Translations under genes and position numbers: made by a program
In this document: positions 6,444 through 45,045 of the stretch, piece after piece
Numbering within the stretch: position 1 is the stretch's first letter
How the letters are laid out: every line of letters starts with the position of its first letter
Notes under the pieces: model-generated
Told to the model about the DNA's origin: nothing
Seen by the model: the letters and a program-made list of their open reading frames with translations, nothing else
Database searches by the model: none
Source of the DNA: a virus
Virus record (IMG/VR): IMGVR_UViG_3300045988_161343
Strand: one strand, 5' to 3'
Length of the DNA stretch: 46,185 nucleotides

Positions 6444-6445
6444 TT

Positions 6446-6778
6446 ATGAAATATGTTGCTTATGATTATTTTGATAATTTCTATCCAGGTATTCTTGGTA
6501 TTTGCAATACTGAAGCTGATGTGCAGGAACTGATTCTTGCCGCCGCCGAAGAAGAAGCATATAGGGCATTCCTTGATGATTATTATTATGATGAAACTGG
6601 AATTACCGTAGAACCTGGTGAAAACCCTATGGAAGTTTATCTTAATGATAAAATTCTTGACTGGAAAGAGTATAACAAATTTAGGTTTCCATTTGACGAT
6701 AAAAATATTTCTTTCTATGGTTGGACCCTTGTTATGGCTGGTGAATATTATAATTATTCTATCGGAGAGGAGTATTAA
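6446..6778 (+). CDS. Paralog 2 of the tandem family, 110 aa
   Basis: ICNTEADVQELILAAAEEE. Confidence 0.55.
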   Translation: MKYVAYDYFDNFYPGILGICNTEADVQELILAAAEEEAYRAFLDDYYYDETGITVEPGENPMEVYLNDKILDWKEYNKFRFPFDDKNISFYGWTLVMAGEYYNYSIGEEY

Positions 6779-6780
6779 AA

Positions 6781-7056
6781 ATGAAATATTTAATTTCTGA
6801 AATTGATGATGATGCTTGTTGCGAAATCCCTCGATATATTTGCAACACTCGAGCAGACGCCGAAGAAGCTATCCTTGCATTAACTGAAGAAGATGTATAT
6901 TATCAAGCAATGTATGAAGGTGTAGATAATTTCTTCAATAACAGTTTTGAATTTAGAAAATCAAGACATCCAAAAGTGAAATGCAAAACTCATTACGGCA
7001 CAGCTCTTTGGTTTATGAGTGGTCGATTTATTATTGACGAATTAGGAGAATACTAA
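6781..7056 (+). CDS. Paralog 3 of the tandem family, 91 aa
   Basis: ICNTRADAEEAILALTEED. Confidence 0.55.
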   Translation: MKYLISEIDDDACCEIPRYICNTRADAEEAILALTEEDVYYQAMYEGVDNFFNNSFEFRKSRHPKVKCKTHYGTALWFMSGRFIIDELGEY

Positions 7057-7058
7057 TT

Positions 7059-7331
7059 ATGAAAATTTATACAGTTGTTGAAGCCGATTATGAAACTATT
7101 CTTAATATTTACTCTTTTAAAACTCGTGGTGACGCAGAAGAATTTATTCTTTCGTGTGTAGAACAAGAAAGTCTAAATACATATAATTATCTAATATCTA
7201 TTTATACTGAAGAAAATGTTTTAACAGAATGGAAAAGATTAGCTTCCAAATATAATAAAACTCTTGAAGGTTATATGCTTTATAAGGGTGGATATAATTT
7301 AAATGGAATTTATGAAAGTGAGCTTAACTAA
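7059..7331 (+). CDS. Paralog 4 of the tandem family, 90 aa
   Basis: SFKTRGDAEEFILSCVEQE. Confidence 0.55.
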   Translation: MKIYTVVEADYETILNIYSFKTRGDAEEFILSCVEQESLNTYNYLISIYTEENVLTEWKRLASKYNKTLEGYMLYKGGYNLNGIYESELN

Positions 7332-7607
7332 ATGAAATATGTTGTTTGGAATAGCTGCAATGATGATTTAATTTGCTGTGATAGCCGAGCTTCCGCTGAA
7401 GAACTTGTTCTATCTATCGCCGAAGAAGAAGCATTTATCGAATATAATTATGGCATTAACAAACTTGATGATGCCGATACTCTTGAAGAATATACAGATA
7501 CATTACGTGATTGGTGGAAGAAATATCAGTGTAGTAATGAATGTATTGCTCTTTTCTTTGGCGGAATTAATTACTATATTAGAGCTATTCCAAGTTTGGA
7601 GGATTAA
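7332..7607 (+). CDS. Paralog 5 of the tandem family, 91 aa
   Basis: CCDSRASAEELVLSIAEEE. Confidence 0.55.
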   Translation: MKYVVWNSCNDDLICCDSRASAEELVLSIAEEEAFIEYNYGINKLDDADTLEEYTDTLRDWWKKYQCSNECIALFFGGINYYIRAIPSLED

Positions 7608-12197: not shown

Positions 12198-13355
12198 ATG
12201 AGTTATTTATTTACCAGTGAGAGCGTTTTTGCCGGTCATCCTGATAAGGTTTGTGATTAGGTAAGTGATGCTATTCTGGATTATGTCCTCCAGCTTGATC
12301 CTGATGCCCGAGTAGCTTGTGAATGTACTATTAGTCCAGGTCTTTTCCACATAATGGGAGAGATTACAGCTAAAACAGAACAATCTATTCCTTATCAGGA
12401 AATTGCAAGAGAGACTTTAAGGTTTATTGGTTATGACAATGATGAAGCAGGATTTAACTGCGACACTTGTTCATATATTATTAATGTAGTAAATCAATCC
12501 CCTGACATCGCTGCGGGTGTCGATAGAGATGGTGCTGGAGATCAAGGCATGATGTTTGGTTATGCAACTAACGAAACAGAAAATTATATGCCTATTGCCC
12601 AGCAGCTTGCTAACAATATCTCGGTCATTATGTTTAGTAAGTATAAAAATGATTTGCTACCTTGGGCGTTACCTGACGGCAAATGTCAGATAACTGTCCA
12701 ATACGATGATGATGGCAACTTTGAAGGGGTAGATACAATTGTCGTATCGGCCCAACACAAAGACAAGTATAGTATTAAGGAAATAACGCCCGATATTACG
12801 AACATTTGTAATATTGCCCTTCAAGGTTATGCCATTAAAAAAGATTGTAAATTTTATATTAACCCAACAGGTAAGTTTGTAAAGGGCGGACCTGCGGCTG
12901 ATACCGGATTAACAGGACGTAAAATCGTTGTAGATACATATGGTGGTTATGCACCACATGGTGGCGGAGCATTTAGCGGTAAAGATAGTTCTAAAGTAGA
13001 TAGATCTGGTGCTTATATGGCACGTTATGTAGCTAAAAATCTTGTAGCTTCTGGTGTTTGTGATAAATGTATGATTCAAGTTGCTTATATTATTGGGCAG
13101 ACAGAACCTGCATCTATTGATATTAATTGTTTTGGCACAGAAAAGAAACCTATCGCTGAAATTCTTGAAGCAGTTAATCAGACATTTGATTTTGCACCGC
13201 GTAGTATTATTCATAAATTTGATTTAAAGCATACTCGCTATTTACCCTATGCTTGCTTCGGTCATTTTGGTCGCATTGAATGTAATAGCCCTTGGGAACA
13301 GCTCGATAAAGTAGAAGAATTAAAAACAATTTTTGATTTTAAAAAGGAGAACTAA
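12198..13355 (+). CDS. metK: S-adenosylmethionine synthetase (MetK) homolog, 385 aa, with one in-frame TAG at a conserved Gln position
   Basis: MSYLFTSESV..GHPDKVCD(TAG)VSDA matches the MetK motif HPDKIADQISDA. Downstream GAGDQGMMFGYA, KGGPAADTGLTGRKIVVDTYGG and GGGAFSGKD are MetK hallmarks. The track only shows the part after the TAG. Confidence 0.8.
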
Positions 13356-28587: not shown

Positions 28588-29586
28588 ATGGGTAAAAAAG
28601 TTTTAGTTCCTGATTTTACTGAAAATTGTAGAGGGATTTTGGAAGGGTTATTCAAGATTAGTGAAGTAGGTCTTTTGAAAGCTCTCGGTGATTTTGTATC
28701 TAATAAATATTCTAATGTAGAGATTACAGAAGATTATGTATATGCTGAAGGTAATATTCCTGTTATGCTTATTGCACATGTAGATACTGTATTTAGACAA
28801 CCAATTCGTCAATTTACTTATAATGAGAAAAGAGCTGTTTATAAAGGCAAGGAAGGTCTTGGAGCAGACGATAGAGCAGGTGTTTTTGCGATTATTCAGA
28901 TTTTACGCAAAAAGTATAGACCTTATGTTCTTTTTACAACAGATGAAGAAATGGGTGGCTATGGTGCGCATATATTTGTTGAAGCACATCCAGTAGCTCC
29001 AAATATTAAGTACATGATTGAGCTTGATAGAGCTGGTGAAAGAGATTGTGTCTTCTATGAGTGTGAAAATTTTACATTTATAGATTATGTTGAAAGTTTT
29101 GGTTTTAGACAAGCAATTGGATCATTTACAGATATTAGTATTATTATGCCTGAATGGGAAATTGCCGGAGTAAATTTATCAGTTGGCTATCATCATGAAC
29201 ATACTCAAAATGAAGATTTGCATATTAGAACATTGTATAATACAATTAATAAAGTATGTAAAATGCTTGATGATATTGAAAATGCAGATAAATATAAATT
29301 TATCCCCAGCAAGGAATATCTTCAGTGGATTACATTGACTAATAAATATCATATGCCTTATGATTTTGATGATGATAAACTTATTAATTGTAGTTTTTGT
29401 AATCAGTTGTATTATGAGTGGGAAGATTTTCCTCTTGATATTGATGGAGTAAAGGTTCATGTATGCCCTGAATGTTTGGCACTTGATCCTAATATTCATC
29501 AATGTGAAAGGTGCTATAATTTATTTTATTCAAATAATATGAAAGAAAGAGTATGTGATAAATGTCGAGTCCCTGTTGTAATTTAA
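28588..29586 (+). CDS. M20/M28/M42-type metallopeptidase-like protein with C-terminal Cys4 zinc ribbons, 332 aa
   Basis: MLIAHVDTVF ... GADDRAGVFA motifs (HxD, GxDD) of the zinc-peptidase/deacylase fold. C-terminus CSFCNQ...CPEC...CERC...CDKC. Confidence 0.45.
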   Translation: MGKKVLVPDFTENCRGILEGLFKISEVGLLKALGDFVSNKYSNVEITEDYVYAEGNIPVMLIAHVDTVFRQPIRQFTYNEKRAVYKGKEGLGADDRAGVFAIIQILRKKYRPYVLFTTDEEMGGYGAHIFVEAHPVAPNIKYMIELDRAGERDCVFYECENFTFIDYVESFGFRQAIGSFTDISIIMPEWEIAGVNLSVGYHHEHTQNEDLHIRTLYNTINKVCKMLDDIENADKYKFIPSKEYLQWITLTNKYHMPYDFDDDKLINCSFCNQLYYEWEDFPLDIDGVKVHVCPECLALDPNIHQCERCYNLFYSNNMKERVCDKCRVPVVI

Positions 29587-29666
29587 ATGAAATTAAAGAA
29601 CAAGTAAAGAAGGTTATTGCCTATTCATAGGGACTGGACATTAACCTTTTAAATATTGATAAATTA

Positions 29667-30987
29667 ATGAATGATTGGGAAGAGAATAAATGCAAATTTT
29701 ATAGCAGACTTCCTGGTAATAAATTAATTTATCAAAGTCATGCACCTATTACAATGTCTATTTCAGAAGATGATAAAAAAGCTGAATTAGATTGTTTTAT
29801 TGACAACATTCGTTGGCGTTATGGCTTATTTGAATTAAGAGATTTTGTTGAAAATAATAGAAAAAATTTTTATAATAATATTTTAAGCGAAGATTATTCA
29901 ATGAATAATGGAACTATCATTCCAAAAGGAATGAAAATAATTAAAGCATTTAAATATTTTGTAGAAGATAAGGAAATTCTTACTGAAATACAAGATAAAG
30001 CTAGTATGCTTATTCAAAATACAAAAATTAGTGGATATTTTTGTATGTCAGTTCATCCATTGGATTATCTTAGTTTAAGTGAAAATACGCATAATTGGCG
30101 GTCATGTCATGCTCTTGATGGAGAATATCGTGCTGGTAATTTATCTTATATGGCAGATAATTGTACGATTATATGTTATATTAAGAGTGAACATGATGCG
30201 GTTTTACCTAGATTTCCAGATGATGTACCATGGGCAGATAAGAAGTGGCGTATGCTTCTTCATGTATCTGATGATGATACTATGGTTATTTCAGGTCGGC
30301 ATTATCCTTATGAAAGTAAAGGATTACAAGATTTTGCTCTTGAACTGTATGAAACATTTTTCGGGCAAGGATATCGGTTTACCGATTGGTGTCATGAAAA
30401 ATATAATACATTTACAATAAATGATAAAATCTTTTCTAATGAAGTTCGTTTATTACCTACTGGGTATATGATGACCCCAGATATTAAGGTTATTGTTGAC
30501 CCAAAAAATCCTTTACATTATAATGACCCTCTTCATTCTACTGTATATGACTATTGGTTTAGTATTGCTTATAGTGAACCTTATTGGCATGAAGAAGGTA
30601 TTCCGCAAGATAAATTAATTCTTCCAAGAACTCGTACCACTACTAAAGTTAATATAGGACATGATGTAAAATGTTGTATTTGTGGTAAAAATGATTGTGT
30701 TTTAACAGATACGATGCTTTGTATTGATTGTGAACTTAAATATGGTACAGAAGAAACAGAAGATTTTACTTTCTGTAGAGAATGCGGTAGACGTATTTAT
30801 ATTCCTGAAGCAATATCATTAGATGATGATGATGGTTATGTATGCCGTAGTTGCGGAGACAATTATTAGATATGTGATAATTGTAATATGTATTATGATA
30901 AAAAAGATTTAATTTATGATGAAGAAAACAATGCTTACTATTGTGAAGCTTGTTATGATGAAATTTTATTTGATAGGGAGAATGAAT
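29667..30987 (+). CDS. Paralog C of the HPLDY/zinc-ribbon family, about 440 aa. TAG at 30867-30869 is read through into a further Cys4 ribbon ending at TAA
   Basis: MSVHPLDYLSLSENTHNWRSC core. Extension ICDNCNMYYDKKDLIYDEENNAYYCEACYDE continues the CxxC module. Confidence 0.5.
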
Positions 30988-30988
30988 A

Positions 30989-31297
30989 ATGGCAAAAGGT
31001 AGTATTGCTAAAGATGCTGTTGTAGAAAAAATTGCAGAAGCATTTGGTGAAGATTTCCTCGGATCTTATGATAAAAAGTATTATGTGCGAGCTAAAGAAA
31101 ATGGACAATATATTCAGATTGCAATTAGTCTAACGTGTCCGAAAACTCCTGTAGAAAATTTTGGTTCTATGGATTTTGGTAATAATGAACTTAATTTTGA
31201 AAATGGAGCAACAATTCAGTCTGTAAAGAAGGCTACAGAAATTAGTCCAGAAGAAGAAGAAAATTTAAAAGCTTTAATTGAAAAGCTTGGTTTATAA
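30989..31297 (+). CDS. Hypothetical protein, 102 aa
   Basis: ORF track. Confidence 0.5.
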   Translation: MAKGSIAKDAVVEKIAEAFGEDFLGSYDKKYYVRAKENGQYIQIAISLTCPKTPVENFGSMDFGNNELNFENGATIQSVKKATEISPEEEENLKALIEKLGL

Positions 31298-31330
31298 GAG
31301 AAAGTCAAATTGACTTTCTCTTATTTTTAT
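31292..31330 (+). terminator. Rho-independent terminator
   Basis: gagaaagtcaaattgactttctc followed by TTATTTTTAT. Confidence 0.6.
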
Positions 31331-31404
31331 GTTATAATTATTTATATAGGGCATATTATATTAATTAAATAATTAAATTTCTTATATAAGAAAGGAATAA
31401 AAAT

Positions 31405-31686
31405 ATGAAGAAGATTATAATTCCTCAAGAAGAAGTAAATTATCTTTAGAAATTAAATTATGAAATTGAAGCTAGAAAAAATTTATGTCAATTTTTAATT
31501 AGACAAAATATTAGAAATAAAGCTTTTAATGATTATCATAATGAGTATATAGAATTATTTGCTGAATATGAATTAGCTAAATTAGAATTAGAAAATAATT
31601 ATATCAAACCAGAAATTGGGAATCAAACTTGCAATTGGAATTTAGATTTTTATACAAATGAGGTAATTATTGATGTTATTTCCTAA
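31405..31686 (+). CDS. Small protein, 93 aa with one TAG, first gene of the rSAM cluster
   Basis: SD AAAGGA; continuous frame ending at TAA; overlaps the rSAM start. Confidence 0.4.
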
Positions 31687-33013
31687 AATAAGCCACATTC
31701 CTGAAGAATTTTCTGATTTTATAGGTCGTTTATATCCTGAAGATTGTTTAAATTCTTAGTCTGTATTTACATTAACATTTTAGGTTACAGATGATTGTTG
31801 TTTAAATTGTACTTATTGTTATCAAGGGCATAAAGGTAAACATAAATTATCTTTTGAAACAGCTAAACAGATGATTGATTAGATATTAACCAGAGATAAT
31901 AAAATTATTGGTTATATTGATTCTTATAAAATACCAGGAGTAATAATAGAATTTATAGGTGGAGAGCCATTTTTAGAAATTGAATTAATTGATTAGATTA
32001 CTGATTATTTTATTAATAAAATGATTGAATTGCGGCATCCTTGGGCTACTAAATATAAAATTTCAATTAGTTCTAATGGTATTTTATATTTTGAACAAAA
32101 AGTACAAGAGTATATTAAAAAAAATAATGAAAATTTAAGTTTATCAATTTCTATTGATGGAAATAAAAAATTACATGACGCTTGTAGAGTTTTCCCTGAT
32201 GGTAGTGGTAGTTATGATAAAGCATTGTCTGCCGCATTACATTATAGCCATAATTATAATAAATGGATTGGGAGTAAAATGACTATCTCTCCATTTAATA
32301 TAGATTATTTATATGACGCTGTTTTAGAAATGATAAACAATGGTTATAGTCAAATCAATCTAAATTGTGTGTATGAAAAAGGTTGGGAACTTAACCATGC
32401 CACTACATTATATTATTAGTTAAAAAAAATTGCTGATTATTTATTAAATAATGATTTGTGGGATAAAGTTTATTTATCTATTTTTTATATTAATGATGGA
32501 AGTAAAAATTTATCTAATGATAATTGGTGTGGCGGGAATGGTCGTATGTTAGCCTTAAATTGGAAAGGTAAATATTATCCATGTTTACGTTATATGGAAG
32601 ATAGCATAAGTAATCAGCCAGAATATTATATTGGAGATATTTATTAGGGAATAGGCCAAGATAATTTAACCATCAATAGATTAAAAGATTTATCTGAAAT
32701 AACAGTTATTAGTCAATCTCCTCAAGAATGTTTAGATTGTGAAATTTCTGGAGGATGCTCTTGGTGTACAGCTTATAATTATCAAGAAACAGGTAATGTT
32801 AATAAAAGAGTTACTTATATTTGTGATATGCATTATGCTACAGTTCTAGCTTCTTTATATTATTTAAATTCTATTTTAAAAAAAATAAACTCGAATAAAC
32901 GATTTAAATTTAATGGAGATATGGAAAAAGCATTAAAAATTATCTCTTAGGATGAATATAATATAATAAAGGAGACAATGACAAATGAAAATAGGAACGA
33001 CAATAACTTCTGA
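31673..33013 (+). CDS. Radical SAM enzyme with C-terminal SPASM/twitch domain (anSME / RiPP-maturase-like), 446 aa with about 7 in-frame TAGs; fragmented in the track
   Basis: CCLNCTYC = CxxxCxxC cluster, GGEP motif. C-terminal Cys clusters CGGNGRMLAL...YYPCLRY and CLDCEISGGCSWCT. Frame is continuous from ATG 31673 to TGA 33011-33013 only with TAG as sense. Confidence 0.65.
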
Positions 33014-33635
33014 TAGATTCAATGAATTAAAGAAAAAAATAAAGGCTGAATGTTTACGTCGTAAATATACCGGTAGTGTAAGTTCATATGGAGGGACTTC
33101 TTATGATTATACTACTTAGCCTGATAATGGAAAAGTTATTTCAAAAGAACACATAACAAAACTGGTAGAACCTATGGCGGCAATAAATATTGAAAATCAG
33201 AATGAAAATATAAATGTTATTAAAGATGATGATTTAAGTACATTAGAGGCAAAAATTACAGCTTATCAAGCTATGGGATTAACTGATTCGAATACTGGAT
33301 GTTCAGCTTATTGCACTGGATTATGTTCTACCAGTTGTAGCGAAAGTTGTGGAGTACAATGTTAGGAAACTTGTTTAGGTAGTTGTAAGAATACTTGCCA
33401 AGGAGGCTGTCAAAACACTTGCAGAGGCGGATGTCAAAGCAGTTGTAGTGGTAGCTGTAGCGGATGTAGTGGTTCTTGCTCAGGTGGATGCTATACAGGA
33501 TGTAGTGGATGCAGTGGTAGCTGTACAAGACATTGTGCTAACGATTGTACTGGATTGTGTGGAGGAAGTTGTTCAGGTTTATGTACAAGCTGTACTGGCA
33601 CATGTAGTGGCACAGGTAGAAATGAACCATTATAA
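32985..33635 (+). CDS. Cysteine-rich repeat peptide, 216 aa: ~100-aa leader followed by ~27 tandem C-x3-C units; precursor-like
   Basis: SD AAGGAGA 9 nt upstream. Core is CSAYCTGLCSTSCSESCGVQC(TAG)ETCLGSCKNTCQGGCQNTCRGGCQSSCSGSCSGCSGSCSGGCYTGCSGCSGSCTRHCANDCTGLCGGSCSGLCTSCTGTCSG; two in-frame TAGs. Confidence 0.55.
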
Positions 33636-33753
33636 TTTAAAAATATTTATCGAAAATACATATAACTGTAAGATATATTATATGTATCTTATACAAGATA
33701 ATATTTTATTTTGTATAAGTAATTATAAGAATATAAATTTTCAAAAATATAAT

Positions 33754-34323
33754 ATGGATATTTAGATTTTATCTGTTTATGAATATTTATGTCAAAAATA
33801 TATTTTACATAAGGATATATTAAAACAATATAAAGGTATAGAATTATATAAAATTATGGAAATTCAAGATAAAATTTTTATTAATAGATATAAATTATTA
33901 TTGTAGATTATTAATAATAATTATAATTTTGATAATTAGTTAATATACACTGATTTTAATAATTTTAATTTTGAACAAAATATTAGTTATATAAATTATT
34001 GTTTAAAATTGCTATTTAATAATTTTAAAAAAATAGATAAACAATTTTGGAAAATTTTAGATTAGATTTATTTTTTAATTAATGGTAAAACTAATTTATT
34101 TTTATTGTTGGGAAATTTTTATTTGAATAAAAGTAATTTATAGCAATTTACTGAAGAAATAAAAAAAATTCCTGGAATTAAAGAATAGCTCTCTTTTAGT
34201 TATACAGCTTTAAATTTAGCTATTGAAATTGATAAAGTTGCAGAAAATAAAAATTATCTTAATGAATTAATTGAAATTATTGATAATCATTCACAAGAAA
34301 AAATTTATAAATTTGATATTTAA
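33754..34323 (+). CDS. Very AT-rich hypothetical protein, about 189 aa, with 6 in-frame TAG and no TAA or TGA
   Basis: In an AT-rich stretch, 570 nt free of TAA and TGA in one frame is unlikely by chance. The N-terminal part of track ORF 33448-33765 is in the same frame. Confidence 0.4.
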
Positions 34324-34742: not shown

Positions 34743-34891
34743 CAAATAAATGCTCTCGTAGCTCAATTGGTCAGAGCCGGCGACTTATCCAAGATTAGTT
34801 TAAATGGCAAAATAGTCTATGCGCAAGAAAGATGTAAGTTCAAATCTAACATCTTGGGCCAAATCGCCAGATGTGGGTTCAAATCCCGACG
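34743..34891 (+). tRNA. tRNA carrying a ~73-nt tRNA-like insertion inside the anticodon loop; anticodon after excision is ambiguous (UAU, UAA or CAA depending on junction)
   Basis: Outer: gctctcg ta gctc aattggtca gagc c ggcga cttat[...]aa tcgcc agat gtggg ttcaaat cccga cgggagc a cca. Insert 34780-34852 is ccaagat...gtaag ttcaaat ctaac atcttgg g cca (acceptor-like stem + T-arm + CCA). Confidence 0.45.
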
Positions 34892-34926
34892 GGAGCACCA
34901 TATTCCAATAGAAAGGAATTAAAATA

Positions 34927-35166
34927 ATGAAGTTGACAAATATTAAGCAGGTTGAAGATTTTATCGCAGCAGTTAATCGCGCACATAGTAATGTATGGCT
35001 GGTTAGTCCACAAGGTGATAGATATAATATGAAATCTGCACTTTCACAGTATATCGCGCTTGGCGCATTACTTGGTCAGCATGGTGATGAATTGGAACTT
35101 TTCTGTGATAGTAAGCAAGATGAAGGTTTGTTTATTGAATTTTTTGTTCGTCACCCTGAAGTTTAA
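34927..35166 (+). CDS. Small hypothetical protein inside the tRNA array, 79 aa
   Basis: ORF track; SD AAAGGAATTAAAATA ATG. Confidence 0.45.
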   Translation: MKLTNIKQVEDFIAAVNRAHSNVWLVSPQGDRYNMKSALSQYIALGALLGQHGDELELFCDSKQDEGLFIEFFVRHPEV

Positions 35167-35234
35167 TTGAAAAATTAAAAAAAATATTATAAAATATATA
35201 TACAAAATAAATGAGAAATAAATTCTCATTTGTA

Positions 35235-35312
35235 TGGGACAGTAGCTTACGAGGTCGGAGCATTGGTCTGAAAAACCAAAGGATGGAGGCTCGATACCTC
35301 CCTGTCCCACCA
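35235..35312 (+). tRNA. tRNA-Phe (anticodon GAA)
   Basis: gggacag ta gctt acgaggtcg gagc a ttggt ctgaaaa accaa agggat ggagg ctcgata cctcc ctgtccc a cca. Preceded by a promoter element and the aatgagaa...ttctcatt hairpin. Confidence 0.7.
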
Positions 35313-35390
35313 ATTGGTCTTATACATGGGGTTTCCGATTTGAACTAGGCAGATTAGTCACCTGCCGTTGGCAATAGACCAATTAAAAAT
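35313..35390 (+). ncRNA. Structured ~76-nt element closed by a 9-bp stem (AATTGGTCT/AGACCAATT) with an internal ggcag-attagtcac-ctgcc hairpin; not a canonical tRNA
   Basis: Immediately 3' of tRNA-Phe. Perfect 9-bp terminal helix. Function unknown. Confidence 0.25.
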
Positions 35391-35563
35391 AAACTGAGGC
35401 AAAGGGAAATCGGGTTTTAATGTATAGCTATAAAGAAATTTTATAGTTAGCTATGATGAACTTCATAGCAAAATCCTCTTGTAATCAAGCTAATTGGGAG
35501 AGGGGTAGCGCGGGAACGGGGAGAAGCGCGCTATAAAAGGTGAAATACTTCTTTCCACCATAT

Positions 35564-35639
35564 GCCGGTGTAGCCGAATGGCATAGGCGAATGATTTAGG
35601 ATCATTAATCTGAAGGTTCGAGTCCTTTCACCGGTACCA
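35564..35639 (+). tRNA. Class-I (short variable arm) tRNA with anticodon UAG; formally Leu(CUA-reading) but lacks the long variable arm of Leu tRNAs
   Basis: gccggtg ta gcc gaatggcata ggc g aatga tttagga tcatt aatct gaagg ttcgagt ccttt caccggt a cca. Confidence 0.55.
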
Positions 35640-35721
35640 ACAGTGAAGTAGTAGCTATATTCACTATAATCAAGGCTCGGTGGTTGGTGGCTCCATCGTT
35701 ATATAAATAAGCCATATATAT

Positions 35722-35792
35722 TACTTCTTGGTGTAATGGAAGCATGCTGCCTGAAAGAGGCGGAGGTATTGGTTCAATTCCAATAGAAGGAT
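35722..35792 (+). tRNA. Atypical tRNA-like gene (T-arm attgg-ttcaatt-ccaat). Anticodon arm is ctgcc-tgaaaga-ggcgg without U33, or a 6-bp stem with a 5-nt loop; no encoded CCA
   Basis: tacttct tg gtg taatggaag cat g ctgcc tgaaaga ggcgg aggt attgg ttcaatt ccaat agaagga t. One A-G mismatch in the acceptor. Confidence 0.3.
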
Positions 35793-36142
35793 TAATTAAA
35801 GCTGGGAAATAATAGTCGCCCATAACTAATTATTTAATATAGGACTATTATTAAAGGTTATTTAAGTTAAAGAAACGCGGTTGAAGTTATTACTTACTTG
35901 ATTATAAAATAACATGACCGCAAGACGAGTGTTTGAAGCTTGTCTATAAACAAATTCTTCATATGTTGTCTTTTTATACTTACTCTTTGGTTGTTTCTTG
36001 ACATATAAGTAAAAACGGAAAGGGAGTTAAAGGTTTAGCTATAAAACCGGTTTGTTTTTAATAAGATTTTTAAAATTAGGTGACAAAATCTTATTTGAGT
36101 GATGCTGCTCAAGAGGGTCCGGAACCTCTAAAATGCGTATAT

Positions 36143-36275
36143 GCGCCAGTGGCCAAGTGGTATGGCACCTGCCTTTGTGGGATTGATGTAAGTAGCATTT
36201 TAATGTATTGGTTCAAATCCAATATTCCGCACCATAAGCAGGGCAACGCGGGTTCGATCCCCGCCTGGCGCACCA
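36143..36275 (+). tRNA. tRNA with Gln-like D-arm carrying a 58-nt tRNA-like insertion in the anticodon loop; the residual loop could read UUU, UUG, UAU or CAU depending on junction
   Basis: Outer: gcgccag tg gcc aagtggtat ggc a cctgc cttt[...]taa gcagg gcaac gcggg ttcgatc cccgc ctggcgc a cca. Insert 36177-36234 is gtgggat tg atg-taagtag-cat tttaatgt attgg ttcaaat ccaat attccgc a cca. Confidence 0.45.
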
Positions 36276-36596
36276 GGTCAAGTTTGAGAAATTTCATAGA
36301 GCATCGCTGACGTTAAATGGTTCTTATATGAAAACGCGCAATTAGTATAAGATAGCAAAATTCTCGTAGTTCATCCATTAGAGAACCTTAAAGAGTAATG
36401 GAATAAGATTATATCATGAGAAATTATGTATATAGTTTTATTTAATTTGGTGTTGAACCAAATATTGTGAAATTCAAGCGAGTCTACCTTATTAGCCCTA
36501 CTGTAATAGCCAGTCTAATATGCCCTCCATACCCAGTGAGGATTTTTATAAAAGTCTATTTAATTTTTCTTGGCAGCTTAATTAAATAGACTATAT

Positions 36597-36673
36597 GCGG
36601 GATTAGCTCAGCTGGTTAGAGCGTTTGGTTTACACCCAAGAGGTCATTGGTTCAAATCCAATATCCTGCACCA
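36597..36673 (+). tRNA. tRNA-Val (anticodon UAC)
   Basis: gcgggat ta gctc agctggttag agc g tttgg tttacac ccaag aggtc attgg ttcaaat ccaat atcctgc a cca. Preceded by a 13-bp hairpin at 36555-36595. Confidence 0.75.
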
Positions 36674-36726
36674 ATAAATTTGAAAATTTAAAAAAAATAT
36701 TATATAATAATAAAGGAGATATTTGA

Positions 36727-36900
36727 AATGGCAACTACTAAGAAACCTGCAATTAAAATGGATAGCACAGAGTTGAACGAGTATCTTCTGTTCCGCCGTC
36801 GTAGATCTATTGTTCCGGCCAAGAAAGGTAAGGGTATGGAATATGATAGGGCGAAAGAAAAAGAGAAATCTGAAAAAATGATTTCTGATGAATAAATCGG
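36727..36900 (+). CDS. Small basic protein, 57 aa, within the tRNA array
   Basis: Promoter variant + SD AAAGGAGA; MATTKKPAIKMDSTELNEYLLFRRRRSIVPAKKGKGMEYDRAKEKEKSEKMISDE. Below track cutoff. Confidence 0.4.
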
Positions 36901-36990
36901 GTGTCTCTTTTCGAGAATTTATATAACGCATACTAATAACTTTGGAGTTGCGTCCAACGGTCAGTGAGTAGTTTTCAGGCTGACATTTAT

Positions 36991-37066
36991 CGGGCTGTAG
37001 AGTAATTGGCTAATTCAGAAGCCTTTCACGCTTCAAACCTGGGTTCGAATCCCAGCAGCTCGACCA
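36991..37066 (+). tRNA. tRNA-Glu (anticodon UUC)
   Basis: cgggctg ta gagt aattggcta attc a gaagc ctttcac gcttc aaac ctggg ttcgaat cccag cagctcg a cca. Confidence 0.75.
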
Positions 37067-37074
37067 TATGGTGC

Positions 37075-37151
37075 TATAGTTCAGTTGGCTAGAATGTCGG
37101 ACTGTCTCTCCGAAGGTCAGGGGTTCGAGTCCCCTTAGCATCGCCACATGC
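37075..37151 (+). tRNA. tRNA-Asp (anticodon GUC)
   Basis: ggtgcta ta gttc agttggcta gaat g tcgga ctgtctc tccga aggtc agggg ttcgagt cccct tagcatc g cca. Confidence 0.75.
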
Positions 37152-37247
37152 TTTTTCCTATGTAAACAATTTTGAAACATAGAACTTGATGGAGCGTTCT
37201 ATTAGTCTGATGCCTGCATTAGATTAAGTTTTATAACCATCATATTT

Positions 37248-37321
37248 GGGGACATAGTTTATGGTAGGAAAACGTTGAATTTAATTCAAAATCGAGGGTG
37301 CAATTCCCTCTGGCTCCACCA
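37248..37321 (+). tRNA. Atypical tRNA. The anticodon arm folds either as 5 bp + 5-nt loop or 4 bp + 7-nt loop ATTTAAT (anticodon UUA, ochre-type); assignment unresolved
   Basis: ggggaca ta gttt atggtagg aaac g ttgaa tttaa ttcaa aatc gaggg tgcaatt ccctc tggctcc a cca. One A-G mismatch in the acceptor. Confidence 0.35.
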
Positions 37322-37446
37322 TTTATGAAAGACAATACAGCAATTATAAATTTGCTTTGGGAGCCGTGTGTTGTAGGTTCGAGTCCTACTGTCTGGTCGA
37401 AGATCGGATATAGCGTAATTGGTAGCGCAACGTATAAAAATTGTCT

Positions 37447-37519
37447 TGTTAATATTGCGGGATCGTCAAGTGGTTAAGACACCAGCCTCATAAACTGGTT
37501 ATCATGGGTTCGAATCCCA
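37447..37519 (+). tRNA. tRNA-Met/Ile2-type (anticodon CAU), no encoded CCA
   Basis: tgcggga tc gtc aagtggttaa gac a ccagc ctcataa actgg ttatc atggg ttcgaat cccac tcccgca a. 31-39 is a C-A mismatch. Confidence 0.6.
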
Positions 37520-37729
37520 CTCCCGCAAGAGATACATTAATCAAGCCTCCACGGGGCGTATCTTGGGTAATGCTAATTGATTAAATGAGTATAATTAATA
37601 ATGTTTTATGAAAAGCCCACACAGCAACTTTTAATAGGATAAATAAGAAATTCTGCAAAAATTTTTTAGAGTTGGTTCAAATCCAGCAAATGATTTTAGG
37701 GCTTTGTTAAAATTGTTAAGGAGAAAATA

Positions 37730-37915
37730 ATGAAGTTTAATCCAGGAGATAAGGTCTGGTGTAAGAGGTACGGTAAGGGTAAGTGCCGCAAGGCTGATAA
37801 TAAAGATAATTTTATGACTTATCTTTTCAGATTTTATGATGGCACTTTGATTTGGATGCCGAAACATCTGGCTGAACATTTTGTAAGAGTTCGTTCCACC
37901 GAGGCCACGGTGTGA
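37730..37915 (+). CDS. Small basic protein, 61 aa
   Basis: ORF track; SD TAAGGAGAAAATA ATG. Confidence 0.45.
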   Translation: MKFNPGDKVWCKRYGKGKCRKADNKDNFMTYLFRFYDGTLIWMPKHLAEHFVRVRSTEATV

Positions 37916-38064
37916 ATATAAAGTCCGGTTATAGGAAATCCTGTCATTAGGCGGCAGGCTACCGGTAATCCTTTCTTATATATTTAAATATGTAAGGAAC
38001 AAAAACTATACAATAGATAGAGTTTTTACGCCTTGGCGCAATGCTTGTTTTTTACTATCTATTT

Positions 38065-38165
38065 TTCTATATCTGTTGGGTTGGCTGAGAGGTCGATAGC
38101 GGCTGCCTGCTAAGCAGTTGTCCCTGGAAACGGGGACCAAAGGTTCAAATCCTTTACCCAACGCC
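38065..38165 (+). tRNA. tRNA-Ser (anticodon GCU), class II with long variable arm
   Basis: gttgggt tg gct gagaggtcgat agc g gctgc ctgctaa gcagt tgtccctggaaacggggacc aaagg ttcaaat ccttt acccaac g cca. Confidence 0.75.
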
Positions 38166-38171
38166 ATTATA

Positions 38172-38256
38172 TGTAGGAGTGCCAGAGTGGTCGATTGGGT
38201 TAGTCTCCAAAACTAATTGTAGCTACACGTCCAGGGTTCGAATCCCTTGCTCCTAT
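38172..38256 (+). tRNA. tRNA with anticodon CCA (Trp-type) but an unusually long, 15-nt variable region and a possible 8-bp acceptor stem
   Basis: gtaggag(t) gc ccag agtggtcga ttgg g ttagt ctccaaa actaa ttgtagctacacgtc caggg ttcgaat ccctt gctcctat g. Confidence 0.45.
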
Positions 38257-38659
38257 GCGTTATCAAGTAAGAGCCTTCCCGTGGCGATGATGTTTAAACT
38301 AATCTTACATTAACATACCCCTACTTTCGTATAATACGGTTAAACCTTGTCGAGGGCAAAGACAACAAGGTATTCCTTTCCGCCCCTCATATATTAAGAC
38401 TCATTTTCAGCAAACTTTTGCCTACAAAGGCTCTACAATACTTACTTATCAAATAATAGATGAAAAAGTATAATAAAGAAAATAAAGTATATTTTGAAAA
38501 GTTTTTTCTTTTTAGCTGGTTTAGTAAGCTAAATTCCGCGTTTTTATTTTGGCTTTTCAATGAGTCTTGTTTTTAAAATAATTGGTATCGCTAAGCTTCA
38601 TGGTAATTGTGGCGTATTTAAATCATAGATAGTTAAGGGTCTATAGCCAATTATGATAT

Positions 38660-39111: not shown

Positions 39112-40185
39112 ATGGCTGAAATTATTAAATTAAGACGCGGTAAATCAACTAGTTGGTCTAAAAAGAATATAGTCCTGGCAGCTGGTGAAATCGGCGTAGA
39201 ACTTGATACACATTAGATTAAAGTCGGCGATGGTTCAACCCCTTGGAATGAACTATCTTATGTAGGCGGAACTAAAGTTGTTAATGTTCAAGAATACACT
39301 GATAATCCAGCAGTTGTAGATGACGTGCCTTATCAATCTATTGATGTAGCATTTGTGAAGGCTCCAGCAGGAAGTACAATTCGTCTTAATGCTAACTTTG
39401 ATAACAGTGTTTCTATTGATAAAGCATTGACTATTGAATTAAATGGTAATGATATTATCAATAATGAAAAAACTCCAATAGATATCAAAGCAAATGGCGA
39501 TTTAACTATTAAGGGCCAAGGCACTATTGAATGTAATAAGAATGAAAATGCCGCAGTTTTTAATAATGGTAATATTACTATTAATAATGGTAAATTACAA
39601 CGTACCACTGATGTATCAGGCAATGGCTATTATACTGCTGTTAATCATGGTACTATGACAATCAATGGTGGCATGTTTATGAGTGGTGGCGAATTTTCTA
39701 GCATGATTGAAAATGGCTATTGGGATTATCACGCTGGTAATACTACTAATGGCTATGTTCAAGGCCAAAATGCTGAAATGCCTACATTAACTATTAATGA
39801 TGGTACATTCGCTGGTGGTTTATATGCTATAAAAAATGATGATAATGCTGTTTTAAATATTAATGGCGGCACATTCTATAATACTATTCTTGCTAATGGT
39901 AAGTCAATAACTATCACTGATGGGTATTTTGAAAATAGTAAGCCAAGTCAAGGCGAATATAATTTTTATCTTCGTAAATTAAGTGAAGATTTAAATCCTC
40001 AAAATACATATATTAGTGGCGGTACATTTATTACTGCACAAGATAAGAATTTCAAAGTTGAGGGCGATCCTCATATTGAAATTAGCGGTGGCCGTTTTAA
40101 TAGAGAATTAGATCCTTCTTATCTAGCTCCTGGCTATAGACAAGTACTTGTCAATGGCTTCTATACTGTCTAGAAGGAGGAATAA
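39112..40185 (+). CDS. Tail spike / fibre protein with conserved N-terminal anchor domain and a parallel beta-helix (pectate-lyase-like) repeat region, 357 aa, one in-frame TAG
   Basis: MAEIIKLRRGKSTSWSKKN...ELDTH(TAG)IKVGDGSTPWNEL is paralogous to the N-termini of 40189, 40727 and 44704. Repeats INGGMF, INDGTF, INGGTFY, ISGGTF, ISGGRF. Track starts at 39325 (GTG) after the TAG. Confidence 0.6.
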
Positions 40186-40188
40186 TCT

Positions 40189-40704
40189 ATGGCTGATATC
40201 ATCAAGTTCAAAAGAGGTCGATCAACTACATGGCGTGAAAAGAACTTATTGCTTAAGGATGGCGAGCCTGGATTTGAATTAGATACTCATAAACTGAAAA
40301 TTGGTGATGGTAAAACCTTATGGAATGATTTACCATATATCGGTGGCGAAAGTGGTACAATTGATCTTCCTGATAATGTAATGGAATTTTTAGGCACAGT
40401 TGATGCACTTCCAGCTACTGCTGAAGATGGAGAAATGTGTATTTATGATGGTAAATTATATATTTACGATGGTAAATGGACAACTACAGAAACTTCTTCT
40501 TCAGCACAAAATTCTTTCAATTCTTTAGTAGATGCAATTAACTATATTACTTAGCATAATTGTGTTGGTCAAATTGTATCTATTTTTTAGAATAATAAAT
40601 GGTTGCCTTATATTGTAGATGTAAATAATAATCTTGTACCTATTCAATATGGAGAAGATCATTATGATATTCTTAATGGCGGCAACGCAAATACTCTTAA
40701 TTAA
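40189..40704 (+). CDS. Tail fibre paralog with the same N-terminal domain, 171 aa, two in-frame TAGs
   Basis: MADIIKFKRGRSTTWREKN...ELDTHKLKIGDGKTLWNDL. Continues through TAG at 40552 and 40588 to TAA at 40702-40704. Confidence 0.55.
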
Positions 40705-40726
40705 TTTTATAGGAGGAAAATAATTT

Positions 40727-41950
40727 ATGGCTGAAAATATTCTTAATACTCGCATTCAAGTATTAAATGATACGGCTGAAGCTCTTAAAGCAAAAGGTAG
40801 TGCAGTCCCAAAAGCTGGTGAAATTGTTTACGAGAACGATACTCGTAAAATGAAAATCGGTGATGGTACTACTACTCTTGAAAACTTAAAATATTTTGGT
40901 GGCGAAGCCGCTCAAAATTTTGAAGCTATTCCAACAGGTGAAGAAACTGACGTTCAGGCTATTACTCGTATTGTAGCTTCTGCAGAACTTCACAATGGCG
41001 ATACTGCTATTGTAAAGCGTGTTATTACTGGCGATAAGACTTCTTATACTGCTTACGTATATGACGGTGAATGGAAAGCTATGGATGGCAATTATCGTGC
41101 TGATAATGTTTATTTTGATGATGACATTACTTATACTGTTGCTATTGGCACTTTAGCTAAACCATCTGGTTCTGCTAAATTTGCAGCTAAAGGTAAGAGC
41201 GTTGAACAGGTCCTTTCTACCTTAATGGCCAAGGAAGCTAATCCTTCTAAGTCTGATCCTGCTGTTAGTTTCAGCTCTACTAGCGGACTTGGTACATTTG
41301 AAATTGGCACGAAGAAGAATTTAACATATACAGCAGCTCTATCTGCTGGTAGTTATACTTATGGTCCAGCTACTGGTATTACAGCTCAGAGTTGGAGTGT
41401 AAAATGCACTGGTGTTGAAGATGTCCTTGCTACTGCTACTGGTTCTTTCGATAATGTTGTTGCTGAAGCAACAGCTAAAAAAATTACTGCAACCGCAACT
41501 TATGGCGACGGCACTATTCCTAAGACCAATCTAGGTAATTCTTATCCTGCTAGCCAGATTAAGGCAGGCTCAGCATCTAAAGATAGCAATGTCCTTTAGG
41601 GTGTCCGTCATATGTTCTATGGTCCTATAACTACTGATGCAGCTCTTGATAGTACTACTATTCGTGGATTAAAACATGAAGCTGCTAGTAAAAAGCCTAT
41701 TACTACATTTGGTGCAGGTGCTGGAGCAAAGAAAGTTGTTATTGCTTGTCCTGCTGGATATAATGTAAGTAAGGTTCTTATGCCTAGTGCTATGAATGCT
41801 GATGCTACTGCTAATTTTGTAAAGCAAGCTGGTACTGTTAATGTTGAGGGCGCTGAAGGATATACTGCAGCTCCTTATACTGTTTGGGTATATTAGCCTG
41901 CTGCAATTGATAGTACTGAAACTTATGCTGTCACAATTGGTTAATTTATA
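40727..41950 (+). CDS. Tail fibre protein, 407 aa, two in-frame TAGs (joins track ORFs 40727 and 41612)
   Basis: N-terminal ...GEIVYENDTRKMKIGDGTTTLENL domain; same frame through TAG 41597 and TAG 41894 to TAA 41948-41950. Confidence 0.55.
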
Positions 41951-41968
41951 AAGGAGGAATAATATAAT

Positions 41969-44668
41969 ATGGCTACTATTTTAAAAGATGCTGCCTATAT
42001 GGCTCTTCCTATGAATATCAAGCGTGGTAATCCTATCCCTCTTGATACTACTGCTGTATGGTACGATAAAACTGAACTAAATAAGTATGCAGCTTCTGGT
42101 GCTACTGCATATGTTGGTCAGATTCTAACATTATGCGCCGATAATAAGTGCGAAGCTTATATGATTTCTAATGAAGCTGGTACATTAATTAAACTAGCTT
42201 CTACAACTACCTCTGGTGACCTTGCTGGCGATGTTGCTACTCTACAAGGTCAAGTTACAAATCTTATTTCTAAGGTTGGTAAAGCAGCTGATGGTGAAGT
42301 CGCAGCTACTGGTCTATATAAAGAAATTGCTAATGTTCTAGCTATTGCTAATGGCAAGGTTGCTTCTGTTAAGGCAGCTGATAAGTCCATTATGGTTGGT
42401 GGCAATGCTACTGAGCCTACTGTTAAGGTAGCTATTGCATCTGGTGAGGATAATGCTCTTTCACTTGCAGCTGATGGTCTGAAGGTTGTTATTCCTGAAG
42501 TGACAGTGCCTGAATATAGCATGAAGAAGCTGGATGCCGCTACTGAGGGCATGTCCGCATCTTATCAGCTAACTAAGGATGGCACAGCTATTGGTGCAGT
42601 TATCGACATTCCAAAAGACATGGTTGTTAAGTCTGGTTCTGTTCAGACATTTGCAGCTGGTGAAGTACCCGCTGGTGTTACTGAGGCTGGTACATATATT
42701 GTATTAGTTCTAGCTAATACTACTAATGATAAATTATATATTAGAGTCAATGATTTAATTGAATATGTCACCTCTGGTTCTGCTGCAGATGATATGGTAT
42801 TCATCAATATTGATCCTAAGACTCATAAGGTAACAGCAAAAATTACTGACGGTAGCATCACTGAAGCTAAACTAGCAAAAGCTGTTACCGATAAGCTCGC
42901 TTTAGCTTCTTCTGCTATTCAGAAGGTCGAATCTGGTACTGCTAATGGCACTATTGCTGTTGATGGTACTGATATTGCTGTCACTGGACTAAAGAGTGCT
43001 GCATATACCGATTCCACTGCTTATGATACTGCTGGTACTGCGGCTGGCATAAAGACAGCTCTTGAAGGTGCTGATGCTGATAAGGCTGATGCTCTTACCA
43101 TTAAGGGTGCTAAGAAATATGCTGAGGAAAAAGCAACTGCAGCTCAGAGTGCTGCTGAAACAACTGCAAAGGGTTATATTGATAAACTAAAACTAGATGA
43201 CGCAGCGGTTGCTAAACAGCTCGTTTCTGCCGTTACGCAGACCAATGGTCAAATTGCAGTTATTCGCCGTGAATTAGTTGCTGATGATATTCCTACTCTT
43301 GGTATTTCTAAGATTGATGGTCTTCAGACCGCCCTTAAAGGTAAACAAGATACAGTAACCTTTGATGGTAAATACGATGCTGGCGTTAATAAGGCTGCTA
43401 CTGTATCTACGGTAAATACTGCTGTTGATCATTTAATTCACACTCTTGGTGGAGAAGATAATCAGACTGAAATTGATACTGTAGATAGTAAAACTATTCG
43501 TGGTGCTAAACTTTATGCTGATGAAGTCGGTAAGACTACTCTTGGTTAGGCTAAAACTTATGCTGATAGCTTAGTCGGTGATAGTTCTGCTATTGCTGGT
43601 CGTGTAACTATTCTTGAAGGCAAAGTTGATGTAGCAAAGGTTAGTACTGCTATCTCTACTGCTAAGAATGAGGCTATTGAGGCCGCAGCAACAGATGCCG
43701 CATCTAAGGATACTGCTTTAAAGGTTGAGATCCTTGGAGACGGATATACTGGTACTGTAAAGGAAGCTTATGACCTTGCTAATAAGAAAACTACTATGAC
43801 TGAGGTTGAAGCTAAGGGCTATGCTGTTAAGACTGAAGTTGATGCAGCTGTTGCTGATGCAAAGCAAGCTGGCACTGATGCTCAGACTTCTGTTGATACA
43901 TTAAGCGGTAAAGTTGGTACTATTCCAGTAGGCGCTAAAGCTACTACTGTTATTGGTTATGTAGATGAAAAAATTGCGGCTATTCCTTCACAGGTTAATT
44001 ATACCGTTACTGCTGATGTTAGTAGTCCTACTGGCATTGCCAAACGTTATGTCCTTAGCCAGAATGGTAGTGATATTGTAACCATTGATATCCCCAAAGA
44101 TATGGTGGTCAGCTCTGGTACTGTTGAAACTAAGGCTGATGCCGGTGTCTGGGGTGTTGCAGGTACTTATCTAGTTCTTACTCTAGCTAATGAAACCTCT
44201 GACAAGGTATATATCAATGTTGGCGACCTTATTGAATATGTAACTAGCGGCTCTTAGGCTGGCGATATGGTCGAAATCAAGATTGATGCCGAGCATAAGG
44301 TCACTGCCGTTATCAATGATGGTACGATTACAAAGGCAAAGCTAGCTTAGGCTGTACAAGATAGCCTAGATAAAGCTGATACAGCACTATAGGCTGCCGA
44401 TCTTGCACCATATGCAAAGACTGCTGATATTAAAGCTGGCTATGTTGCAAAAGAAGATGGCAAACAGCTAATGACCGCTGCTGAAAGCACTAAATTGGCC
44501 GGTATTGCTGCTAATGCACAGGTCAACGTGATTGAAGTCATTAAGATTGGCGGCACTGCTCTTGAAATTGCTGATAAAGCTGTTAATATTGAAGCAATCA
44601 GTACTGATCTATTAACTCAAGGTGCTAAAACTCTTATTCTCAATGGTGGCACCGCTGCTTCTCTTTGA
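41969..44668 (+). CDS. Large tail fibre protein, 899 aa, with internal sequence repeats and four in-frame TAGs (joins track ORFs 41969, 43796 and 44471)
   Basis: Single frame verified codon by codon across TAG 43547, 44255, 44348 and 44391 to TGA 44666-44668. Repeat GTYIVLVLANTTNDKLYIRVNDLIEYVTSGSAADDMVFINID / GTYLVLTLANETSDKVYINVGDLIEYVTSGS(TAG)AGDMVEIKID. Confidence 0.6.
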
Positions 44669-44703
44669 TATATATACTAGGGAGAGAGAAAGGGGAATAA
44701 AGA

Positions 44704-45045
44704 ATGGCTCAAAAAGAATTTAATACACGAATTAAATTAAAGTATGATACTTTAGATAAATGGTTAAAGAATACATCAGTTGTACTGCTTAAAGGCGAAA
44801 TTGGCTTATGCTATGTGCCGGCGATTACATCTGGTACAACGACCACAGCTCCTACTGTACTATTTAAAGTTGGTGATGGTACAACCACATGGGAAAAACT
44901 ACCTTGGGGTGCAGGGCTTGGAGCAGATGTCCCGGCATGGGCTAAGGCACCTGCAAAGCCATCTTATACCCTTGATGAAATAGGTGCTAATCCTGATACC
45001 AACTATGTAATTTTCGATTGTGGTTCTTCTACTATAAATATATAA
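44704..45045 (+). CDS. Tail fibre paralog (N-terminal anchor domain only), 113 aa
   Basis: MAQKEFNTRIKLKYDTLDKWLKNTSVVLLKGEIG...FKVGDGTTTWEKL. Confidence 0.55.
   Translation: MAQKEFNTRIKLKYDTLDKWLKNTSVVLLKGEIGLCYVPAITSGTTTTAPTVLFKVGDGTTTWEKLPWGAGLGADVPAWAKAPAKPSYTLDEIGANPDTNYVIFDCGSSTINI

Follow-up and report, generated by a model that had tools for sequence, protein, structure and literature searches.

A reduced CXXX-repeat radical-SAM cassette in a TAG-recoded phage and its possible role in cross-linking a late protein

The virus record IMGVR_UViG_3300045988_161343 is a stretch of 46,185 nucleotides (1–46185; referred to below as the window) that carries, at positions 31405–33635, a cassette encoding a small partner protein, a radical S-adenosylmethionine (SAM)/SPASM enzyme and a target protein with a long cysteine repeat. 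We consider it very probable that the enzyme belongs to the CXXX-repeat family of peptide maturases and is functionally paired with the other two proteins. The broader reading, in which the cassette is a phage-adapted and reduced CXXX-repeat radical-SAM system for the enzymatic cross-linking of a late, possibly virion-associated protein, has in our judgement an even chance of being correct.

Translated with the standard code (table 11), the region gives only fragments that are interrupted at TAG, as the original prediction for this DNA had pointed out. When TAG is taken as a sense codon, three overlapping open reading frames (ORFs) appear on the plus strand. The partner gene (31405–31686) encodes 93 amino acids and has a single in-frame TAG, the maturase gene (31673–33013) encodes 446 amino acids with seven in-frame TAG codons read as glutamine, and the target gene (32985–33635) encodes 216 amino acids with two. 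Partner and enzyme genes overlap by 14 nt and enzyme and target genes by 29 nt; the ORF coordinates and the latter overlap agree in full with those proposed originally. A purine-rich, Shine-Dalgarno-like stretch precedes each of the three starts.

The reading of TAG as glutamine in this phage is well supported by sequence comparison, because TAG positions of the enzyme align with glutamine and no ORF of the window stops at TAG. Positions 37, 108 and 249 of the enzyme stand opposite glutamine in 36/36, 35/36 and 29/36 homologues, respectively, all taken from phages without in-frame TAG, and the 57 ORFs of the window terminate at TAA (45) or TGA (12). In-frame TAG codons occur at 1.0 per 1000 codons upstream of approximately position 31350 and at 8.9 per 1000 downstream, and the cassette has the highest density. 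This pattern fits a TAG-to-glutamine recoded phage with TAG-rich late genes. Use of the standard code for the genes upstream of 31300 was considered and rejected; those genes are merely poor in TAG, and none of them ends with it. No clear CUA suppressor tRNA was identified in the window. The cassette clearly illustrates how a late gene set in a TAG-recoded gut phage escapes gene callers that use the standard code.

The enzyme, its target and the partner protein

The enzyme matches the NCBIfam family TIGR04115, entitled 'radical SAM peptide maturase, CXXX-repeat target family', with 431.3 bits (cutoff 350; E 3.7e-129) over model positions 3–359 of 359. The next NCBIfam match, PapB, reaches 162 bits for a cutoff of 340; CcpM (101 bits) and QhpD (TIGR03906; 84 bits, cutoff 453) lie far under their cutoffs. 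The original prediction had likened the C-terminal cysteine clusters of the enzyme to those of maturases such as anaerobic sulfatase maturases (anSME) and had named the SCIFF maturases for comparison; membership in either of these two families fails, with 108.4 bits against a cutoff of 425 for TIGR03974 and 64.7 bits against 349.45 for TIGR03942. The C/S-x-[AP]-x-R motif of sulfatases is absent from the target protein. Pfam detects Radical_SAM and Fer4_12 domains in the enzyme and, weakly, a SPASM domain (16 bits compared with the required 21.5). The sequence contains the motifs CCLNCTYC (CX3CX2C) and FIGGEPF. In an alignment of 11 diverse homologues, with identities down to 33%, Cys42, Cys46 and Cys49 are invariant, and so are Cys286, Cys304, Cys353, Cys356, Cys362, Cys365 and Cys384, seven residues that follow the pattern CX11GX4C ... 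CX2CX5CX2C ... C. As judged from this alignment, the enzyme carries the full SPASM complement of auxiliary-cluster cysteines, and its original identification as a radical-SAM/SPASM protein stands.

The best relative of the enzyme in the PDB is the SCIFF maturase CteB (5WGG, E 1e-20; also 5WHY), which provides the nearest solved structure and resembles it in the radical-SAM core and in a SPASM domain that holds two auxiliary clusters. The alignment is continuous through the SPASM domain of CteB and begins only at CteB residue 95, past the RiPP recognition element (RRE; RiPP, a peptide made by the ribosome and then modified post-translationally), and the enzyme is therefore predicted to lack an N-terminal RRE. 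Unlike CteB, in which that element binds the leader, the phage enzyme has only about 30 residues before the core. A stand-alone PqqD-like RRE was likewise not found in the cassette. At the six positions annotated as 'catalytic site proximity' the enzyme has, according to the alignment, Tyr50, Ile95, Ser133, Ser160, Leu305 and Arg306 in place of Phe, Phe, Thr, Ser, His and Gln in CteB. Some phage homologues of the enzyme are about 350 residues longer, with ORFs of 783–799 amino acids in loci L077–L082 and of 708 amino acids in L074. One homologue (P0045) has the intein/LAGLIDADG Pfam domains PF14528, PF13403 and PF14890, which suggests that inteins are inserted in its maturase gene.

The target protein consists of a conserved, predicted helical N-terminal domain (residues 1–105; 32985–33299, plus strand), a CXXX-repeat region made of tetrads rich in Ser, Gly and Thr (residues 106–207; 33300–33605, plus strand) and a short C-terminal tail, SGTGRNEPL, followed by the TAA stop (33606–33635, plus strand). 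The repeat had been described as about 27 C-x3-C units; the region does hold 27 cysteines, which delimit 26 intervals, 23 of them CX3C (interval 4) and three CX2C (interval 3). In 200,000 shuffles of the segment the number of CX3C intervals averaged 2.8 and never exceeded 11. The DNA of the region shows only short and weak repeats, and the cysteine period is therefore maintained at the protein level, by selection on the protein. The intervening positions are occupied by Ser, Thr, Gly, Ala, Asn or Asp, and cysteine spacing is the only invariant feature; the first units contain a conserved C-x3-C-T-G-L-C motif. The target scores 18.2 bits with TIGR04114, just below the cutoff of 20, and a 216-residue homologue at the same position of a closely related human-gut scaffold gives a weak match to PF27846 ('tSAM_targ_Cxxx_rpt').

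An AlphaFold2 model was obtained for the homologue P0121, which is about 50% identical to the target, from an alignment of 71 sequences. The predicted local distance difference test score (pLDDT) ranges from 85 to 97 in the helical N-domain and from 41 to 52 in the repeat tail. The N-terminal region of about 105 residues is thus predicted to be a folded helical domain and not a disordered leader, and the tail is predicted to have no defined fold when unmodified. Among 1.84 billion cluster representatives, 196 relatives of the N-domain were found; a CXXX run follows the domain in 104 of the 115 that are at least 135 residues long, and most of the remainder resemble frameshifts or chimeras. Phage targets extend up to 430 residues with 86 cysteines. 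One locus (L074:68–4634) contains at least six consecutive CXXX-repeat ORFs with 31–76 cysteines each upstream of the maturase gene, and the N-domain is present in only one of these.

A homologue of the partner is found in 80 of 82 viral loci by BLAST clustering and in all 82 by a hidden Markov model (HMM). Its gene lies directly upstream of the enzyme gene or overlaps it in nearly all loci, and is located 1.1 kb upstream in L075 and L076. None of 13 phage members has a direct NCBIfam match at E ≤ 1. The phage partner HMM nevertheless retrieves Bacteroidales proteins of about 90 residues that are bona fide members of TIGR04116 (103 bits each), and hhalign aligns the phage family with TIGR04116 members at full length (88 columns; probability 82%, E 1.1e-5), including the C-terminal N-W-x-[LI]-[DN]-F-x-T motif. 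These comparisons indicate that the partner is probably a distant relative of the TIGR04116 'CXXX repeat peptide modification system protein'. An AlphaFold2 model of a 95%-identical homologue (pLDDT 95.3) comprises a strand, a long helical hairpin of two long helices and two further strands. Covariation between a W-x-L-D-F motif in the partner and C-x3-C-T-G-L-C in the target was considered as evidence of direct recognition and dropped, as no clean association emerged: 45 loci were concordant with both motifs, 45 were discordant and one had neither.

Linkage, distribution and genomic setting

Relatives of the enzyme with 47–98% identity occur in at least 101 IMG/VR contigs, and phage relatives are also present in PHROGs 1802 and 6085. 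The system is consequently common in phages, contrary to the initial impression that no phage example was known. In 77 of the 82 viral loci, an ORF with a Cys repeat is encoded on the same strand no more than about 4 kb from the enzyme gene; in the remaining five, at least one flank is short. Same-strand CXXX ORFs were also located nearby in 67 of the best 80 bacterial loci. This co-occurrence, whose absence would have counted against the original prediction by its own standard, ties the enzyme to the Cys-repeat protein. The target gene is found directly downstream of the enzyme gene, as in the window, directly upstream of it, or 2.6–4 kb upstream, and the linkage between enzyme and target has therefore survived rearrangement. 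The cassette is carried by TAG-recoded phages and also by phages whose enzyme gene is free of in-frame TAG. At least 543 loci with enzyme relatives were detected in the species-representative bacterial and archaeal genomes scanned, and the candidates scored include more than 3,600 protein clusters at E ≤ 1e-10, which makes the CXXX-repeat radical-SAM system a widespread one.

Among GenBank phages, 25 kb of the window gave no nucleotide match and the target gave none with tblastn; the enzyme relatives there are limited to two unannotated faecal contigs (35–37% identical). Radical-SAM proteins of jumbo phages (SPN3US and Erwinia phages) are about 25% identical to the enzyme. A close relative of the window phage, with an enzyme 97% identical, is the 187,676-bp scaffold aot2015-HCO70_SRR1761673_Peru_scaffold_1 (ENA ERZ5839929; L163), whose name suggests a Peruvian human-gut metagenome. 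Public gene calls on this scaffold already use a code with TAG as sense and give products of 446 and 216 residues.

The enzyme–target–partner architecture, which had been thought possibly novel, is already catalogued as the CXXX-repeat system (NCBIfam TIGR04114–04119 and Pfam PF27846), with maturase TIGR04115, targets TIGR04114 and TIGR04117, partner TIGR04116 and a second maturase, TIGR04119. The description of the system is reportedly due to Haft and Basu in 2011. As far as we could find, the bacterial system has been defined only in silico. The cellular form, seen in 57 of the 80 bacterial loci and in L002 and distributed over Bacteroidales, many Clostridia and some other bacterial lineages, comprises several short targets (exported peptides of 60–130 residues) with twin-arginine signals, the radical-SAM enzyme, TIGR04119 (240 bits), TIGR04116 and TatC (155 bits). 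The phage form is represented by the window, L001, L003–L082 and approximately 20 Bacillota loci.

Both forms have an above-cutoff radical-SAM/SPASM enzyme, a target with a cysteine at every fourth residue, a partner of about 90 residues and tight same-strand linkage. They differ in that the phage form lacks the SPASM-only maturase TIGR04119, TatC and any twin-arginine signal or other signal peptide on the target. A tblastn search with the 240-bit TIGR04119 member found no counterpart in the window, L001 or L003–L082. The phage target, moreover, bears a dedicated N-domain of about 105 residues that is predicted to fold and falls just under the TIGR04114 cutoff, and the phage partner is too diverged for a direct match to TIGR04116. 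Finally, the phage form is situated in tail and lysis modules and in Clostridia prophages. What appears undescribed in the literature that we searched is this phage form, with its three genes, its new N-domain and no TIGR04119 or TatC, together with its abundance in gut phages and its association with tail modules. Searches for the chemistry or role of CXXX-repeat/TIGR04115 systems, for phage ranthipeptides, for radical-SAM enzymes acting on phage structural proteins and for stop-codon recoding combined with radical SAM returned nothing relevant. The phage form is a minimal version, consisting of three genes without the second maturase or export machinery, and is for that reason the easiest form from which to start elucidating the reaction.

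In phages of the L008 type, the cassette has a virion/tail-fibre protein (phrog_2163, phrog_7037) on one side and a tail protein (phrog_5302, E 1e-121) on the other, and in those of the L031 type its neighbours are tail fibres on one side and the endolysin on the other. The three Bacillota loci inspected (L085 of Desnuesiella massiliensis mt10, L087 of Neglectibacter timonensis SN17 and L094 of Anaerobacterium chartisolvens DSM 27016, all cultured hosts) are clearly prophages, with tape-measure, baseplate and tail-fibre genes upstream of the cassette and holin/amidase genes downstream. In L042–L070 and L077–L082 the sole CXXX ORF is a protein of 813–824 residues encoded among tail-fibre genes, whose N-terminal CXXX repeats span about 230 residues and precede two glycine-rich domains of the ALK/LTK type (PF12810, E 2e-96). 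Downstream of its cassette, the window has an ORF of 233 residues (33622–34323), then a tRNA array and then the tail-fibre genes (39112–45045). The latter are five consecutive genes, at least four of which have the common N-terminal motif K/R-G-x-x-x-x-W-x-x-x-N-x-x-L-x-x-G-E-x-G-x-E; both genes scanned gave tail-fibre matches in PHROGs, and one product has 899 residues. Neither the window nor the representative phage loci examined has a protease or an ABC transporter beside the cassette.

ORFs of about 185–200 residues between target and partner in L071, L001, L085 and L094 were considered, together with the 233-residue ORF of the window, as a possible fourth component. This idea was rejected, as they have no mutual BLAST similarity. 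The 233-residue ORF is confined to the closest relatives, L003–L006. In one TAG-recoded phage, a second, different radical-SAM-like ORF of 444 residues with the motif CNLKCRYCY (L071:8662–9996) is located 1.4 kb downstream of the cassette.

Possible chemistry and role of the modified protein

According to the mechanism that we propose, the three late genes would be co-transcribed, yielding the partner, the enzyme and the substrate together. The enzyme would cleave SAM reductively at the [4Fe-4S] cluster held by the CX3CX2C motif and take a hydrogen from the peptide, and the two auxiliary clusters would help to join cysteine sulfurs to nearby carbons. The repeat would thereby acquire small thioether rings, one after another along its length. 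Because the enzyme has no RRE domain, the partner probably presents or chaperones the substrate, a role that is a guess, since its fold yields only generic helical-hairpin matches. The product would be a rod-like module, stapled covalently and resistant to proteases and redox conditions, within a late protein associated with tail fibres and possibly with the virion; it would not be an antibiotic peptide that is cleaved off and secreted.

A run of small thioether rings is, by analogy, the most economical guess about the chemistry, and one that we regard as evenly poised, because all of the nearest characterised relatives (PapB at 162 bits, SCIFF maturase at 108, QhpD at 84 and CteB at E 1e-20) join a cysteine sulfur to carbon. 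The best-scoring of these, PapB, is likewise a radical-SAM/SPASM enzyme and produces the ranthipeptide freyrasin, with Cys-X3-Asp beta-thioethers. Its substrate contains repeated Cys-X3 units that are converted to sequential small Cys-X3-Asp rings (PMC9413430), and enzymes of the PapB/NxxcB/GggB type form sequential small rings (PMC10288494). The two systems differ in that the acceptor of PapB is Asp or Glu, whereas no acidic residue recurs in the phage repeats, and in that PapB acts on a peptide of about 50 residues, whereas CXXX substrates are proteins with 27 to 95 cysteines. Modification of a protein has a radical-SAM/SPASM precedent in QhpD, which installs several Cys-to-Asp/Glu thioethers in QhpC, the gamma subunit of quinohemoprotein amine dehydrogenase. 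QhpC is no natural product but remains built into a larger assembly as a structural part. It has three defined cross-links and a quinone cofactor with no repeat array, unlike the phage target.

The original prediction interpreted the locus as a RiPP cluster, and the core of that idea, a radical-SAM/SPASM enzyme beside a Cys-repeat substrate, is retained; the leader and the small product are doubtful. In the classical RiPP scheme, the region of about 105 residues would be a long leader of the NHLP/Nif11 type, the enzyme would cyclise the core of Cys repeats, a protease of the host or one encoded at an unlinked site would remove the leader, and the polycyclic peptide would be freed at lysis as a bacteriocin, a signal or anti-competitor cargo (a moron). 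Such a scheme agrees with the pairing of a precursor with a radical-SAM/SPASM enzyme, with the RiPP maturases being the nearest characterised enzymes, with the NCBIfam title 'peptide maturase', with the short exported targets of bacteria and with the tail/lysis boundary, which is a common site of phage cargo genes. We nonetheless judge it unlikely. The N-domain is predicted to be folded, no protease or transporter lies in or beside the cassette in any phage locus examined, and no RRE was found. Targets reach 430 residues with 86 cysteines, and 813–824 residues when fused to the glycine-rich, tail-fibre-like domains, and the L008-type cassette is embedded in the tail module. Modification at the protein level is favoured over a cleaved antibiotic because of the predicted N-domain fold, the lack of protease, exporter and RRE, the very long targets, the tail-fibre-like fusions and the constant position in tail or lysis modules.

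The same enzyme and substrate may be engaged in a chemistry other than thioether formation, such as formylglycine-like oxidation, Cys-Cys ladders with C-S or S-S bonds, or C-methylation or epimerisation of neighbouring residues. SPASM enzymes catalyse many reactions (PMC10114670), the six 'catalytic site proximity' positions listed above differ from CteB, and the repeats offer no conserved acceptor. Against this, the best-scoring characterised families are all formers of cysteine thioethers, the anSME score is only 65 bits for a cutoff of 349, and the C-x-[AP]-x-R motif is missing; we consider a departure of this kind quite improbable. It is very improbable that the tail binds metal or clusters, in the manner of a metallothionein or of a scaffold for Fe-S, with the enzyme merely assisting its maturation or acting elsewhere: the extreme density of cysteines among small residues and the twin-arginine signals and dedicated TatC of the bacterial homologues, a route typical of cofactor-loaded or pre-folded proteins, would agree with it, but the spacing and the Gly/Ser/Thr context are unlike known Fe-S and metallothionein motifs, export by the twin-arginine route is equally consistent with a rigid product cross-linked beforehand, and the strict, rearrangement-proof linkage to a peptide-modifying radical-SAM family argues for covalent modification.

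Several observations weigh against the cross-linking of a late structural protein by the phage system. As far as the chemistry is concerned, PapB requires a carboxylate acceptor, and the repeats contain neither a conserved acceptor residue nor a recurring acidic one; in addition, no experimental characterisation of any TIGR04115 system was found in the literature searched. As for the components, the N-domain has no structural or profile match, including to any known tail or baseplate domain, and fold comparison of the partner returned generic helical hairpins and no similarity to PqqD or the RRE. As for the setting, the tRNA genes and the lineage-specific 233-residue ORF part the cassette of the window from the tail-fibre genes, and the vicinity of tail-fibre and lysis genes also houses phage morons, including bacteriocin-like cargo.

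A role of the cross-linked protein as a virion-associated structural module is accordingly advanced only tentatively. More doubtful is its most specific version, a stapled fibre, in which the enzyme would zip the segment with a cysteine at every fourth residue of a tail-fibre-module protein into a continuous thioether ladder. If true, the result would be a rigid virion rod, proof against proteases and reduction and suited to the gut; it could be the first radical-SAM modification of a phage structural protein, and would assign a function to the orphan family TIGR04115. We are not aware of a phage structural protein documented to be modified post-translationally by a radical-SAM enzyme. Should the tail-module context and the tail-fibre-like fusions reflect a role in the virion, the system would place enzyme-installed covalent cross-links in a structural protein, a kind of cross-link for which, to our knowledge, phages offer no precedent. 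The system may also provide a programmable route to very long polycyclic, Cys-stapled polypeptides.

Further features of the window

A terminator-like hairpin (31294–31324, plus strand), with a 14-bp stem followed by a T run, closes the gene upstream of the cassette (30989–31297). It is followed by a promoter-like site, TTGACT-17-(TG)TATAAT (31310–31338, plus strand; 11 of 12 matches), about 67 nt 5' of the first cassette gene. Both features come from consensus scans only, and promoter-like sites are no more numerous in the region than in shuffled sequences.

A homologue of metK, encoding a SAM synthetase of 385 residues, is present at 12198–13355. The original prediction had noted this gene as a supply of SAM at a distance of 19 kb, and the distance to the radical-SAM gene, 5' of which it lies, is approximately 18 kb. 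Its codon 21 is a TAG, at a position where E. coli MetK has glutamine. The ORF at 29562–30989 (475 residues, phrog_18912) contains an in-frame TAG as codon 436; read with the standard code, it would lose the C-terminal 39 residues, which continue a series of CxxC zinc-ribbon-like motifs.

The tRNA array extends from 34752 to 38258. ARAGORN finds nine tRNAs, and Rfam adds three, at 34752–34897 (146 nt, apparently intron-containing), 36143–36231 and 37248–37318. The anticodon loop of the last can be read as AUUUAAU; its anticodon would then be UUA, and the tRNA might read a stop codon. In its intron mode, ARAGORN instead assigns this tRNA to Lys(ttt). Five tandem paralogous small ORFs of 90–110 residues occupy positions 6117–7607 (6117–6443, 6446–6778, 6781–7056, 7059–7331 and 7332–7607) and have the common motif ADAEE-[FL]-[IL]L...EE.

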